Source: a virus | Virus genome (UHGV): UHGV-1652597 | Strand: one strand, 5' to 3' | DNA: 18,470 nt | Shown here: piece after piece, positions 7,658-11,973 of the stretch | Layout: each line of letters starts with the position of its first letter | Position numbering within the stretch: position 1 is the stretch's first letter | The notes under the pieces: model-generated | Databases searched by the model: none | What the model was told of the DNA's origin: nothing | What the model saw: only the letters and a program-made list of their open reading frames with translations | Translations under genes and position numbers: made by a program

Positions 7658-7825
7658 ATGTTTGTCAAACCTGTTAAAGGGCGGTCAGTTCCTGACCCTG
7701 CCCGCGGCGACCTTTTGCCCGCCGAAGGGCGAAATGTTGACGAGAACAACTACTGGCTGCGCCGTGAAGTAGCGGGTGATATCCGGCGCGTGAATAAAAA
7801 GGTGAATACCGATGACGAGCTTTAA
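7658..7825 (+). CDS. Small conserved protein preceding the tail sheath (Mu-like gp38 / DUF2635-like); not in the supplied ORF track
   Basis: Hand-translated 55-codon ORF ATG 7658 to TAA 7823-7825: MFVKPVKGRSVPDPARGDLLPAEGRNVDENNYWLRREVAGDIRRVNKKVNTDDEL. It overlaps the sheath start by 14 nt and resembles the small proteins found upstream of sheath genes in Mu-like tail clusters. Confidence 0.45.
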   Translation: MFVKPVKGRSVPDPARGDLLPAEGRNVDENNYWLRREVAGDIRRVNKKVNTDDEL

Positions 7826-9305
7826 CACCATTCCGTCGAATACGCTGGTTCCGCTGTTTTATGCGGAAATGGATAATCAGGCGGCGAATACTGCACAGGA
7901 CAGCGGAGCATCGCTGCTGATTGGTCATGCCAATAACGGTGCAGAGATTGTTGCCAACAGTCTGGTACTGATGCCGTCGGCAGACTATGCACGCCAGATT
8001 TGTGGTGCGGGAAGTCAGCTGGCGCGTATGGTCGAGGCTTATCGCCAGACCGACCCGTTTGGCGAGCTATATGTGATTGCCGTTCCTGAATCCACAGGCG
8101 CGGCGGCAACGGTTACGCTGACGGTGACCGGGGCGGCAACCGAAACCGGCACGGTGAATGTCTATGTGGGACGTACCCGCGTGCAGGCTCCGGTGACCAA
8201 CGGCGATAACGTCACGACGATTGCCAGCAGTATCAAAGATGCCATCAATGCCGTTCCGGCCCTGCCGTTTACGGCTTCATCTTCGGCAGGCGTGGTCACA
8301 CTGACCGCGCGTCATAAGGGGCTTTGCGGGAATGAAATTCCTGTCAGCCTCAATTACTACGGCTTTGGTGGGGGCGAAGTGCTGCCAGCGGGCGTACAGA
8401 TTGCCGTGGCGACGGGTACCGCCGGAACGGGTGCTCCGGTTCTCACCGGCGCGGTGGCTGCAATGGCGGATGAGCCGTTTGATTATATCGGTCTGCCGTT
8501 CAACGACACGGCCTCCGTTAACACGCTGGTGACCGAGATGAACGATACCAGCGGTCGCTGGAGCTATGCGCGTCAGCTGTATGGTCATGTGTATACGGCA
8601 AAGATCGGCACGCTGTCAGAACTGGTGACCGCAGGTGACCAGTTTAACCAGCAGCACATTACCCTGGCGGGGTACGAAAAAGAGACCCAGACGCCTGCCG
8701 ACGAACTGGCGGCAAGCCGTACCGCCCGCGCAGCGGTGTTTATTCGCAACGATCCGGCACGTCCCACGCAGACCGGTGAGCTGGTGGATATGCTGCCTGC
8801 GCCGAAGGGGAAACGGTTCACGATGACCGAACAACAGACCCTGCTGTCTCATGGCGTGGCAACGGCGTATGTCGAAAGCGGGGTACTGCGCATTCAGCGT
8901 GATGTCACCACGTACAGGAAAAACGCTTACGGGGTTGCGGATAACAGCTACCTCGACAGTGAGACACTGCATACCAGCGCGTATGTACTGCGCAAACTGA
9001 AATCCGTCATTACCAGTAAGTACGGGCGTCACAAGCTTGCCAGTGACGGTACCCGCTTTGGTCCCGGTCAGGCGATTGTCACCCCGGCGGTGATCAAAGG
9101 GGAACTGCTGGCAACCTACCGTCAGCTTGAGCGTGCGGGGATCGTGGAAAACTACGAACTGTTTAAGCAGTACCTGGTTGTGGAGCGTGATGCCAGCGAT
9201 CCGAACCGCCTGAACACGCTGTTCCCGCCTGACTATGTTAACCAGTTGCGTGTCTTTGCCGTGGTTAACCAGTTCCGTCTTCAGTATTCAGAGGAGTCTG
9301 CATAA
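7812..9305 (+). CDS. Contractile tail sheath protein (Mu gpL-like)
   Basis: 497 aa; N-terminus TSFNTIPSNTLVPLFYAEMD is typical of sheath proteins; immediately followed by a tube gene with TAATG overlap. Confidence 0.9.
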   Translation: MTSFNTIPSNTLVPLFYAEMDNQAANTAQDSGASLLIGHANNGAEIVANSLVLMPSADYARQICGAGSQLARMVEAYRQTDPFGELYVIAVPESTGAAATVTLTVTGAATETGTVNVYVGRTRVQAPVTNGDNVTTIASSIKDAINAVPALPFTASSSAGVVTLTARHKGLCGNEIPVSLNYYGFGGGEVLPAGVQIAVATGTAGTGAPVLTGAVAAMADEPFDYIGLPFNDTASVNTLVTEMNDTSGRWSYARQLYGHVYTAKIGTLSELVTAGDQFNQQHITLAGYEKETQTPADELAASRTARAAVFIRNDPARPTQTGELVDMLPAPKGKRFTMTEQQTLLSHGVATAYVESGVLRIQRDVTTYRKNAYGVADNSYLDSETLHTSAYVLRKLKSVITSKYGRHKLASDGTRFGPGQAIVTPAVIKGELLATYRQLERAGIVENYELFKQYLVVERDASDPNRLNTLFPPDYVNQLRVFAVVNQFRLQYSEESA

Positions 9306-9661
9306 TGGCCCGTATCGGGGGAACCTGTTATTTCAAAATTGACGGTCAGCAGCTATCGCTGACCGGCGGCATTGAGGTGCCCATGAACAGGACGGTCAAT
9401 GATGACATCATCGGCCTGGACGGTTCAGTGGACCGCAAGGAAACTCACCGTGCGCCCTATGTCAAAGGGACCTTCAAGGTGCCGAAGAATTTTCCGGTGA
9501 GCAAAATCACCTCGTCTGATGAGATGACCATCACTGCCGAGCTGGCGAACGGTCAGGTCTATGTACTGTCGTCTGCCTGGCTGCACGGCGAAGCGAACCA
9601 TAATGCCGAAGAAGGCACGGTTGATCTTGAGTTCCACGGTGAAGAAGGGGATTACCAGTGA
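9305..9661 (+). CDS. Tail tube protein (Mu gpM-like)
   Basis: 118-aa ORF directly after the sheath gene with overlapping stop/start; size and position typical of the tube protein of Mu-like contractile tails. Confidence 0.8.
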   Translation: MARIGGTCYFKIDGQQLSLTGGIEVPMNRTVNDDIIGLDGSVDRKETHRAPYVKGTFKVPKNFPVSKITSSDEMTITAELANGQVYVLSSAWLHGEANHNAEEGTVDLEFHGEEGDYQ

Positions 9662-9981
9662 TTGAGCTTGTACTTAAAAAACCGATCATCGCCCACAAAG
9701 AAACACTGCATGTGCTGGAAATACGTGAGCCTACGTATGACGAGATTGAGGCGCTGGGGTTCCCTTTCTCTGTTTCACCTGATGGTGGTATGAAAATGGA
9801 CAGTCAGGTAGCGCTGAAATATATCCCGCTTCTGGCCGGGATCCCGCGCTCGTCTGCAGCGCAGATGACGAAGCTGGATATTTTCAAGGCAGGCATGATT
9901 GTAATGCGTTTTTTTACCGGCTTGGAGACGGAAGAGACCTCCGGAAGCGATTCTACAATGTCGCGTGGTTCTGGAAATTAA
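9658..9981 (+). CDS. Tail assembly chaperone (gpG / P2 gpE-like)
   Basis: 107 aa, acidic; located between the tube and tape measure genes; contains an in-frame T7 run at 9909-9915 (candidate slippery site). Confidence 0.7.
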   Translation: MIELVLKKPIIAHKETLHVLEIREPTYDEIEALGFPFSVSPDGGMKMDSQVALKYIPLLAGIPRSSAAQMTKLDIFKAGMIVMRFFTGLETEETSGSDSTMSRGSGN

Positions 9982-10073
9982 ACCCCCTTGAACTTCGCCG
10001 GACGGCTATTTCCCACTTTGCTGATCTGGAGGCAGAGGCCGTCCGTATAAATGAGGAGATGAAGCATGGCTGA
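9658..10073 (+). CDS. Putative -1 frameshift product of the tail assembly chaperone (G-T / E-E' type fusion); slip at T_TTT_TTT 9909-9915
   Basis: Heptamer T TTT TTT lies in the zero frame (codons TTT 9910-9912 and TTT 9913-9915). The -1 frame is open from 9783 to TGA 10071-10073, giving about 52 extra residues (YRLGDGRDLRKRFYNVAWFWKLNPLELRRTAISHFADLEAEAVRINEEMKHG) that end just inside the tape measure start. Confidence 0.45.
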
Positions 10074-11973
10074 TAATTTTCAGCTGAAAGCCATCATCAC
10101 CGCCGTTGACAGGCTGTCCGGCCCGCTTAAAGGTATGCAGCGTCAGCTTAAGGGGTTTCAGAAAGAAGTCTCCAGCCTTGCTCTGGGCGCTGCCGGGGCG
10201 GGTACTGCAATAATGGGGGCACTGGCACTCCCTGTAAAATCAGCCATCACCCTTGAATCGAAGATGGCTGATGTCCGCAAAGTGGTAGACGGTCTGGATA
10301 CGCCGGATGCGTTTAAGGCCATGACGGAGCAGGTACGCGCTTTGTCTACTGAGCTTCCCATGTCTGCAGACGGGATCGCGGAAATTGTGGCGGCTGGCGG
10401 TCAGGCCGGGATTGCACGTGATGAACTGATGCAGTTTGCCACTGATGCGGTGAAGATGGGCGTGGCCTTTGATACCACGGCTGAAGAGTCCGGGCAGATG
10501 ATGGCCCAGTGGCGTACTGCGTTTAATATGACGCAGGATGAAGTGGCCGGGCTGGCTGACAAAATCAACTACCTTGGTAATACCGGCCCGGCGAATGCGA
10601 AGAAAATCTCCGATATTGTTACGCGTATTGGTCCTTTAGGTGGTGTTGCAGGTGTGGCTTCCGGCGAAATCGCGGCAATGGGGGCAACCATTGCCGGGAT
10701 GGGCGTGGAGTCAGAAATTGCCGCCACAGGGATCAAGAACTTCATGCTTTCCCTGACCGCGGGAAATTCCGCGACAAAATCGCAGAAACAGGCATTACGT
10801 TTTCTGCGGATCAATCCGAAGAAATTAGCTGCTGATATGCAGAAAGATGCCCGGGGAACCATGCTGTCTGTACTGGATGCGATGGCTAAAGTGCCCAAAG
10901 AAAAACAGGCAGCTGTGCTGAATGCCCTGTTCGGGAAAGAGTCTCTGGGCGCGATAGCACCTCTGCTGACTAACCTTGATTTGTTGCGTACCAACTTCAG
11001 GCGGGTTGCGGATTCCCAGCAGTATGGCAGTTCGATGCAGAAGGAATATGCTTCGAGGGCAGCGACGACGGAAAACCAGCTTTTACTTCTGCAAAATCAA
11101 CTTGATGCCATTTCTTCCACGCTGGGGGAAACGTTTCTTCCTGAGGTTAATGATGGTCTTGAAGCGGTAAAACCGCTCCTTGAGGAAGTGAGAACGTTTG
11201 TCCGTGAAAACCCGGAGCTCGTTAAGACCATTGCTAAAATCGGTCTGGCCTTACTGACGGTGGGAGCCGCTGCAGGCTCTTTGTCCAGAATTATGAAAGT
11301 TCTCGGCGGTGTGATGAATATGACGCCTGCTAAGGGGCTGATTGCTCTTCTGGTTGGTGGCGCTTACCTCATTATTGATAACTGGGAAACCGTAGGTCCT
11401 GTCATAAAAAAAGTCTGGCACGTGGTGGATGAAACGGCGCAGGCGATGGGGGGATGGGAAACTGTTCTGAAAGCGATTGCCCTGTTTATGGCAACCAAAT
11501 GGGTTGCTGACGTTACCAAATCCATTACCGCAGTGACCAGAGAGATGCGTACGCTGGGGAAGGTATCGGCAGAAACGGGATTGATGGGGAAAGGCCGCGG
11601 CTTTATCGGGAAGGCCGGGGTATATGGTTTTCTGGGAACCCTGATGTATGAGCCGGTTAAAGATACTCTGGAAAGTGTTGTTCCTGAAGATACGGTTAAC
11701 TGGCTGGATAATAAAGGGCTGTTTCTGGCTTCAGACTGGACGCCTTTTTTTGATCGTAAAGAGTACGAGCAGTATCAGGCCAGCCTGAGTCAGTACAAAC
11801 CCAATGTTCCGCTGCTGAATCCATCTTCTTCCATGACACAGCACAGCGAGCTGAAAGTCACGTTCGAGAATGCTCCGCCAGGTATGAAGATAATTGATGT
11901 ACCGGGCAAAGCCGATCCCCTGATGAAAATCACGCACGATGTGGGGTATTCCCCTTTTCGTTTTCCACGATAA
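10066..11973 (+). CDS. Tail tape measure protein
   Basis: 635 aa; Ala/Gly-rich N-terminal helical region and hydrophobic central segments; GAGGAG Shine-Dalgarno 7 nt upstream of ATG; positioned after the chaperone as in all long-tailed phages. Confidence 0.9.
   Translation: MADNFQLKAIITAVDRLSGPLKGMQRQLKGFQKEVSSLALGAAGAGTAIMGALALPVKSAITLESKMADVRKVVDGLDTPDAFKAMTEQVRALSTELPMSADGIAEIVAAGGQAGIARDELMQFATDAVKMGVAFDTTAEESGQMMAQWRTAFNMTQDEVAGLADKINYLGNTGPANAKKISDIVTRIGPLGGVAGVASGEIAAMGATIAGMGVESEIAATGIKNFMLSLTAGNSATKSQKQALRFLRINPKKLAADMQKDARGTMLSVLDAMAKVPKEKQAAVLNALFGKESLGAIAPLLTNLDLLRTNFRRVADSQQYGSSMQKEYASRAATTENQLLLLQNQLDAISSTLGETFLPEVNDGLEAVKPLLEEVRTFVRENPELVKTIAKIGLALLTVGAAAGSLSRIMKVLGGVMNMTPAKGLIALLVGGAYLIIDNWETVGPVIKKVWHVVDETAQAMGGWETVLKAIALFMATKWVADVTKSITAVTREMRTLGKVSAETGLMGKGRGFIGKAGVYGFLGTLMYEPVKDTLESVVPEDTVNWLDNKGLFLASDWTPFFDRKEYEQYQASLSQYKPNVPLLNPSSSMTQHSELKVTFENAPPGMKIIDVPGKADPLMKITHDVGYSPFRFPR

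Follow-up and report, generated by a model that had tools for sequence, protein, structure and literature searches.

A probable programmed -1 ribosomal frameshift of the P2 type in the tail assembly chaperone gene of an SfIV-like Escherichia coli/Shigella prophage

Does a phage tail assembly chaperone gene that is overlapped by a long open -1 frame encode one product or two? This question was addressed for an 18,470-nt stretch of viral DNA (UHGV virus genome UHGV-1652597), hereafter referred to as the window. The window comes from an SfIV-like E. coli/Shigella prophage. Over the 1.1 kb tested, its identity is 100% with Escherichia phage vB_EcoM-720R4 and 99.2% with Shigella phage SfIV, and the same allele of the chaperone region is found in 212 of 5,426 complete E. 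coli genomes. Comparison with related loci indicates that a programmed -1 ribosomal frameshift at positions 9909 to 9915, yielding a 138-aa chaperone-T fusion homologous to P2 E/E+E', is highly probable.

The chaperone gene lies in the canonical position between the tube (PF10618) and tape measure (PF10145) genes, and its GTG start overlaps the stop codon of the tube gene. The 107-aa product matched PF10109 (Phage_TAC_7) with an E value of 1.2e-07 and 32.1 bits (cut-off, 25), residues 5 to 86 aligning with positions 3 to 78 of the 79-position profile. Pfam describes this family, which is that of P2 E and Mu gp41, as "tail assembly chaperone proteins E, or 41 or 14." The product also matched phrog_166 ("tail protein"; E value of 3.9e-22) and carries the PGAP label "phage tail assembly protein," and an NCBIfam scan of the chaperone gave no match. 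Features of the locus are listed in Table 1.

Table 1. Positions of features at the chaperone locus, in coordinates of the window
Feature	Position	Strand	Basis or remark
Tail sheath	7812-9305		Phage_sheath domains
Tail tube	9305..9661	+	PF10618 Tail_tube, E value 2.4e-33; upstream neighbor of the chaperone gene
Tail assembly chaperone, 0-frame product of 107 aa (E/G-like short form)	9658..9981	+	ORF and translation
Slippery heptamer T_TTT_TTT (mRNA U_UUU_UUU)	9909..9915	+	Sequence and phasing
-1 frame extension (T- or E'-like domain), 52 codons, YRLGDGRDLRKRFYNVAWFWKLNPLELRRTAISHFADLEAEAVRINEEMKHG	9915..10073	+	TGA at 10071-10073
Predicted frameshift product, 138 aa	join(9658..9915, 9915..10073)	+	Base 9915 read twice; 86 + 52 aa
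Dual-coding overlap	9916..9981	+	0-frame tail of 21 aa (TGLETEETSGSDSTMSRGSGN plus stop) versus first 22 codons of the extension
GAGGAG, putative Shine-Dalgarno-like element for the tape measure gene	10053..10058	+	Read from sequence
Tape measure	10066..11973	+	PF10145 PhageMin_Tail, E value 2.2e-42

Chaperone codons begin at positions 9910 and 9913, which phases the run of seven T residues (T7) as X_XXY_YYZ; it consists of the codons for Phe85 and Phe86 plus the T of the preceding CGT (Arg84). The -1 frame is open from position 9783, and its post-heptamer portion (YRLGDG...EEMKHG) carries the tape measure ATG within its last codons, ATGGCTGA, for an overlap of 8 nt. The GAGGAG upstream of that ATG coincides with two Glu codons in the conserved ...NEEMKHG end of the extension. 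The 138-aa product would read ...MRFFYRLG... across the junction and would give AGMIVMRFFYRLGDGRDLRK as its Lys-C junction peptide. A first-pass annotation of the window had proposed the same heptamer in the zero frame, a -1 frame open from 9783 to a TGA overlapping the tape measure start, and products of 107 and about 138 aa; phasing, coordinates, and product lengths (107 aa, and 86 + 52 = 138 aa) all proved correct.

Within the window alone, a T7 run combined with an open -1 frame is a weak signal. Five T7 runs were observed on the two strands versus 2.98 expected, and 44 of 200 shuffles reached five. The approximately 6,005 codons of the window include 15 in-frame XXXYYYZ heptamers, and at least 52 open -1 codons lie downstream of 6% of codon positions. 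Only two heptamers, at 9909 and 11952, are followed by a -1 frame that stays open beyond the 0-frame stop. Since these window-only statistics are weak, the case for a frameshift rests on conservation among relatives.

Relatives were identified by tblastn using the chaperone and the extension as queries and were then compared at the heptamer column. They included phages of Escherichia/Shigella, Salmonella, Yersinia, Pantoea, Edwardsiella, Pseudomonas/Stutzerimonas, Burkholderia, and Paraburkholderia hosts. The 31 loci compared were 29 related loci with the heptamer, P2, and one exception, Paraburkholderia phage IPK. An in-frame T_TTT_TTN was present in a single alignment column in 30 of the 31 loci, which range from 31 to 99% in protein identity (P2 included). 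Leaving P2 aside, the other 29 of these loci have a -1 extension of 51 to 64 aa that stops a few nucleotides from the tape measure start. Ten phage relatives (31 to 99% identity) have T_TTT_TTT, T_TTT_TTC, or T_TTT_TTG at residues 84 to 89, followed by an extension of 52 to 64 aa; the annotated phage relatives, nine in number with 31 to 76% identity, are SfV, phiP27, ST64B, YeP1, AH07, EPP-1, PG1, DVM-2008, and BgVeeders33. Chromosomal loci were found by scanning one genome per species, and all 19 (from Shigella, E. coli, Pantoea, Mixta, Erwinia, Buttiauxella, Leclercia, Mangrovibacter, and uncultured Enterobacterales) have T_TTT_TTT and an extension of 51 to 54 aa. At these loci, the extension stops 5 to 8 nt downstream from where the tape measure start codon begins; at one of them (L028), a scripted search saw no tape measure start nearby.

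The residue before the two Phe codons is any of five amino acids (R, N, G, S, or P), yet all 30 of 30 loci, counting P2, have T as the X base of the heptamer. This is selection at the nucleotide level, as tandem tRNA slippage requires. Both frames are open over only about 40 nt in AH07 and EPP-1, and the heptamer lies inside this shared stretch, so the site of the shift is pinned in these phages. The sole exception is phage IPK (an UNVERIFIED record), in which GGC TTC TTC takes the place of a canonical heptamer; even so, the T-like domain of IPK remains in the -1 frame. The first-pass annotation had suggested looking for stop codons in the -1 frame of close homologs as evidence against frameshifting; the result was negative in all relatives except one unverified record.

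Codon-position analysis of 16 sequences from the SfIV/phiP27/ST64B subgroup indicated that the extension is evolving under protein-coding constraint in the -1 frame. Past the 0-frame stop, mean pairwise differences at -1-frame codon positions 1, 2, and 3 were 0.243, 0.170, and 0.497, respectively, and among the 27 gap-free codons in this region, third positions were variable in 26 and second positions in 10. The synonymous share of pairwise codon differences was 57% in the -1 frame versus 7.5% and 1.8% in the other frames. In the 66-nt overlap, the most variable site was position 3 of the -1 frame, which is position 2 of the 0 frame (0.361); constraint in the overlap is thus mainly on the -1 frame. 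The acidic and Ser-rich 0-frame tail of 21 aa looks weakly constrained from these patterns, and in the SfV subgroup the 0-frame tail extends only 3 aa past the heptamer.

The extension has protein similarity in relatives by tblastn down to 39% identity (E value of 3e-6), with a shared motif, [YF]xxAx[FY]Wx[ILV][ND]P...AxR[IL], that in the window (YNVAWFWKLNP) begins 12 codons past the heptamer. It matched phrog_32181, a small family of unknown function (E value of 4.5e-6), presumably as a result of some annotators calling the extension ORF separately. A Pfam scan of the extension alone gave no match, and a PDB sequence search returned nothing meaningful. The predicted structure of the fused protein, for which P0001 served as a 99% proxy with a 24-row alignment, was too poor to use (mean pLDDT of 47.3 and pTM of 0.27).

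No stimulatory element was found by the searches performed. The 92 nt downstream of the heptamer did not fold into a stable structure relative to shuffled sequences (z = -0.15), and 45-nt downstream folds for 13 relatives, including P2, likewise did not outperform shuffled sequences (z scores of +0.53 to -1.43). A consensus fold of 13 aligned sequences placed four pairs far downstream with no covariation support (covariation term of +0.13), and an Rfam scan gave no match. The downstream stem-loop or pseudoknot that the first-pass annotation had proposed looking for did not appear in the single-sequence secondary-structure folds, the consensus fold, or the Rfam scan. A hairpin noticed by eye at 9922 to 9944 (UUGGAG/CUCCGG, 6-nt spacer) was rejected, as it was not better than shuffles and not kept in relatives. 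Upstream, inspection of the 24 nt preceding the heptamer in 30 loci revealed no conserved Shine-Dalgarno-like (GGAGG-like) element. By these analyses, the locus is not a canonical stimulated -1 frameshifting cassette with a downstream stem-loop or an upstream Shine-Dalgarno element.

The fusion could also be made by RNA polymerase stuttering on T7, which would produce an mRNA with U8 (or U5) and hence a 138-aa (or 137-aa) protein. Distant relatives and P2 keep the architecture with only six T residues (T6C or T6G), against this explanation, although within the SfIV/phiP27/ST64B subgroup the full T7 is always present (21 of 21 loci, YeP1 included), T6C or T6G occurring elsewhere. That no ribosomal stimulator was found is in its favor, the protein product would be identical to the ribosomal one, and E. 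coli genes contain fewer UUUUUUU heptamers than expected in each of the three frames, a rarity for which the authors named transcriptional slippage or indel mutation as possible causes (PMC4066793). The X_XXY_YYZ register is, however, invariant and the T at X silent, features that a ribosome needs and a polymerase does not, and the corresponding site of Mannheimia PHL101 is G_GGA_AAG, which is not a homopolymer. For E. coli RNA polymerase to slip efficiently, a run of about nine or more is generally required, longer than the run here. The T6C and T6G relatives, the invariant register, and the GGGAAAG variant all point to a ribosomal basis for the conserved mechanism, and we regard transcriptional slippage as decidedly unlikely. 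With low probability, the strict T7 and the lack of a detected stimulator could instead mean that ribosomal and RNA polymerase slippage on the run both contribute to the long form, or that an unrecognized stimulator, such as the nascent ...MIVMRFF peptide or the tape measure protein, tunes the ratio. If that were true, the Shigella flexneri lineage with a constitutive fusion, described below, would be a natural loss-of-ratio mutant.

Two further explanations dispense with slippage. The -1 ORF might be a separately translated small gene, or a non-coding spacer, with T7 incidental; within the window, neither T7 runs nor long open -1 stretches are rare, phrog_32181 is consistent with a separate small ORF, and in some records, such as those of Yersinia and Acidovorax phages, the downstream ORF is called separately ("P2 GpE tail family protein"). 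In the window, no ORF of at least 20 aa starting with ATG, GTG, or TTG exists in the extension frame, and the YNVAWFWKLNP motif comes too soon after the heptamer to favor a separate gene; independent initiation was rejected on the lack of such a start. The strong synonymous bias indicates that the extension is translated in the -1 frame, and the retention of heptamer and phase in 30 of 31 loci also weighs against an incidental T7, making this explanation very improbable. The last explanation, that the real gene is a single ORF of 137 to 138 aa and T7 a miscount or inactivating mutation, draws on read-through proteins in databases, namely P0001 (T5; 137 aa) and S. flexneri P0003 to P0007 (140 to 142 aa). 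Three of the four T5 loci among those listed, however, are in assemblies with fragmented neighboring genes, and the S. flexneri fusion results from a separate downstream 1-nt insertion that leaves T7 intact. T7 recurs within the same flanks in 212 complete E. coli genomes, and T7 is also found in the isolated phages SfIV and vB_EcoM-720R4 and in 19 of 19 chromosomal loci. The 81 nt around T7 are identical in 148 of 213 records, and all of the 25 matches listed, including those at 97.5 to 98.8% identity, span exactly 81 nt, so there is no net length change at T7 among them. Given the breadth of the T7 allele and this constant length, sequencing error and pseudogene status were rejected, and we consider this explanation scarcely credible.

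Under programmed ribosomal frameshifting, most ribosomes would read 9658 to 9981 and release the 107-aa chaperone, and a minority would pause at U_UUU_UUU with tRNA-Phe on UUU in both the P and A sites. Both tRNAs could then slip back by one base and re-pair perfectly with UUU/UUU, after which 52 codons of the -1 frame would be read to the UGA at 10071 to 10073, giving a 138-aa protein that shares its 86 N-terminal residues with the short form. Work on lambda and P2 assigns tape measure binding to the N-domain and recruitment of the tube protein to the extension (PMC5009743). If lambda G/GT and P2 E/E+E' are a guide, the N-domain common to both forms would coat the tape measure protein, and the extension would recruit the tail tube protein so that the tube polymerizes around the tape measure. 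Both chaperone forms would be absent from the virion, and a fixed ratio between them, set by frameshift efficiency, would matter. On the same analogy, tail assembly very likely depends on the 138-aa product. What the sequences show directly is the anatomy of the locus, its conservation, the coding constraint on the -1 frame, and the homology to P2 E+E'; frameshifting by ribosomes at this site, its efficiency, and the binding partners are inferred.

Efficiency is one of the points that count against this reading. U_UUU_UUU and U_UUU_UUC both fall in H_HH.U_UU.Y, a class that is efficient in E. coli (PMC4066793). In E. coli reporters, the -1 shift at U_UUU_UUU was 0.33% unaided, 0.45% when the IS911 stimulator was present, and 10.2% when the IS3 pseudoknot was, the corresponding values for UUUUUUC being 0.12%, 0.89%, and 7.6% (PMC4066793). 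The lambda products are reported to have a molar ratio of 30:1, and efficiency in P2 and related phages is reportedly 2- to 3-fold higher (PMC5009743). The unstimulated level of about 0.3% is below those of lambda and P2, which implies either that an unrecognized stimulator exists or that the product ratio is very skewed. Frameshifting efficiency here may be well below 1%, or it may be set by a factor undetectable by the sequence methods used.

The first-pass annotation had also held that automated callers miss such frameshifts, and records of relatives agree. The 138-aa form is annotated in none of the records for SfIV, vB_EcoM-720R4, SfV, phiP27, ST64B, and an E. coli PGAP genome, nor in those for YeP1, AH07, EPP-1, PG1, DVM-2008, and BgVeeders33, and the 33 listed E. 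coli matches over the site are all labeled only "phage tail assembly protein." The long form is annotated in the P2 RefSeq record and in Burkholderia phage Mana. A survey of -1 frameshifting in E. coli by Sharma et al. reported five prophage clusters, and the cluster of the window is not among them (PMC4066793). In the literature searched on SfV, SfIV, and ST64B in connection with frameshifting, not covering a possible tabulation by Xu et al. 2004, nothing on the site was found. Chaperone -1 frameshifting is a well-known feature of long-tailed phages, and the locus described here is at most an unannotated case. Its significance lies mainly in annotation, and the finding raises no new question. 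In practice, the T run and its phase must be kept when engineering prophages or building tailocins and considered when judging prophage intactness.

Among known frameshift systems, dnaX and IS3/IS911 share the X_XXY_YYZ tandem-slippage heptamer with the window, and U_UUU_UUC is the heptamer of some IS elements (PMC4066793). Those systems use an upstream Shine-Dalgarno-like element and/or a downstream hairpin or pseudoknot, whereas none was detected or conserved at this locus. Lambda G/GT resembles the window in having a chaperone gene ahead of the tape measure gene and a low-level -1 shift near its 3' end, the extra domain of the long form recruiting the major tail (tube) protein and the product ratio being critical (PMC5009743). 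Its heptamer is G_GGA_AAG, decoded by Gly and Lys tRNAs versus Phe and Phe in the window, and the lambda tail is non-contractile. No membership in the lambda gpG/gpT family was found (the Pfam scan gave PF10109 only and NCBIfam nothing), and lambda G/GT is best described as a functional and positional analog with no detectable sequence relationship.

The correspondence with P2 is much closer. In P2, a -1 shift at TTTTTTG is reported to yield E, of 91 aa, and E+E', of 142 aa, with no RNA structure downstream of the site (PMC3091744, citing Christie et al. 2002 for the frameshift). NC_001895 annotates E+E' as a -1 frameshift; the heptamer, T_TTT_TTG, falls at residue 84 in the sequence ...VVGFL, and an extension of 57 aa follows it. 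In L014 numbering, tape measure gene T begins at 851 and E+E' runs to 858, an 8-nt overlap. Like the window, P2 has a PF10109 N-domain in the slot between the tube (FII) and tape measure (T) genes, a T_TTT_TTN heptamer at residue 84 to 85 in a ...V(A/V)GF(F/L) motif, a shift in the -1 direction, and an extension stop that overlaps the tape measure ATG by 8 nt, and the lack of a detected downstream RNA structure in the window agrees with what has been reported for P2. They differ in the Z base (T in the window, with UUU for Phe in the A site, versus G in P2, with UUG for Leu), in the length of the extension (52 versus 57 aa), and in the 0-frame tail past the site (21 versus 6 aa), and sequence identity in the profile alignment is low, at about 13 to 23%.

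Profile comparison of 17 fused sequences from the family of the window with nine P2-like fused sequences supported homology. The nine P2-like heptamers are TTTTTTG in seven, TTTTTTT in Zymomonas pZM36, and GGGAAAG in Mannheimia PHL101. Full-length fused profiles aligned with 97.4% probability (E value of 1e-11) over 130 collinear columns, passing collinearly through the extension, and the junctions, GFF| in the family of the window and GFL| in the P2 family, fell in the same profile column. The N-domain profile alone matched the P2-like profile at 95.3% (E value of 2.4e-8). The extension-only profile comparison reached 68% probability (E value of 4.8e-5), in register (A..F.W.P...[ST]E[LF]...A.R), and a profile comparison against the single P2 sequence reached only 13.9%. 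Collinear fused profiles, a shared junction column, and the same gene slot bear out the analogy to P2 E/E+E' that the first-pass annotation had drawn. Of the two extensions with which it had suggested comparing the one here, that of P2 E+E' lies in the same frame and aligns collinearly within the full-length profiles, and the Mu equivalent is reported to use a -2 frameshift (PMC2628397, PMC5009743), so that P2 E/E+E' is the precise analog.

The Mu extension lies in the +1/-2 frame with the T run absent, versus the -1 frame in the window. Mu gp41 is otherwise like the window in its slot ahead of the tape measure gene and, by family name, in PF10109. Record annotations describe the sheath, tube, DUF2635, and gp38-like genes next to the chaperone as Mu-like, and the sheath, tube, and DUF2635 genes are accordingly not P2-like. 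On sequence grounds, the locus is a Mu-like tail module bearing a P2-type slip site, and it adds a well-sampled clade with this combination to the comparative picture of chaperone frameshifting.

Apart from the T7 run (the T_TTT_TTT heptamer at 9909-9915, the proposed -1 frameshift site), the C_CCT_TTT heptamer near the end of the tape measure gene is the only one in the window whose -1 extension outruns the stop, its 33-codon run reaching past the end of the tape measure frame. Slippage at the A_AAA_AAA and T_TTT_TTT heptamers within the same gene would merely truncate the tape measure protein, given where their -1 frames stop. The U_UUC tetramer upstream of T7 is a conceivable secondary slip site, and the -1 frame is already open there. 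In phage phiP27 the -1 frame opens just 21 nt ahead of the heptamer, so a shift at the equivalent tetramer position would be unproductive in that phage.

Candidate slip sites in the window and heptamers at the equivalent site in the P2-like family (L numbers are related loci, in their own coordinates)
Site	Location	Remarks
C_CCT_TTT, in-frame	11952-11958	7 codons ahead of tape measure stop
A_AAA_AAA, in-frame	11406-11412	Inside tape measure gene; -1 frame stops after 6 codons
T_TTT_TTT, in-frame	11745-11751	Inside tape measure gene; -1 frame stops after 0 codons
U_UUC tetramer, in-frame (Ile-Phe, ATT TTC)	9882-9885	27 nt 5' of T7
G_GGA_AAG (lambda-type heptamer)	L047 315-321	Mannheimia phage PHL101, equivalent site
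T_TTT_TTT	L049 324-330	Zymomonas pZM36, equivalent site

Judging from the sequences of the P2-like family, one heptamer can take the place of another with no change in the architecture. Paraburkholderia phage IPK (L010, an UNVERIFIED record; 1195-1500 and downstream) has GGC TTC TTC and is the sole relative lacking a T run. Its -1 frame contains two stops past the FF codons and then a T-like domain, which is likewise in the -1 frame. In IPK both frames are open together only across GAG GGC GCG, ahead of TAA, where there is a possible G_GGC slip tetramer.

Two sets of loci encode the chaperone and its extension as a single reading frame. Database protein P0001 (loci L038-L041) is a 137-aa read-through version caused by T5 in place of T7. 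Of the four T5 loci shown, three are from assemblies with fragmented sheath, tube, or tape measure genes as well, and the shortened run is therefore likely a homopolymer sequencing error. T7 is intact in a widespread Shigella flexneri prophage allele (L035-L037; protein P0007), which is indexed in 754 collection blocks. This allele has one additional G about 30 nt 3' of T7 (CCGGAAAC to CCGGGAAAC, at about 1798-1800), which brings the T-domain into frame with the 0-frame ORF. The only product it can yield is a 142-aa constitutive fusion, the short form being impossible; the prophage is thus probably defective and a natural loss-of-ratio mutant.

A mosaic junction lies at about 9686-9695. SfV, SfI, SfII, and SKA5 share 96-97% identity with the window across the sheath and tube genes until about 30 nt inside the chaperone gene, and no megablast match to the window was found for them beyond that point; their chaperone proteins are only 44-46% identical to that of the window. 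Because identity drops at this position, the chaperone and tape measure genes appear to have been exchanged as one module.

The putative Shine-Dalgarno sequence (GAGGAG) and the start codon of the tape measure gene fall within the extension's conserved terminus, ...NEEMKHG* (10053-10073). With this embedded start and an 8-nt overlap between the extension and the tape measure gene (ATGGCTGA), ribosomes completing the predicted long form would terminate on the tape measure start. E+E' and T of phage P2 overlap by the same 8-nt length.
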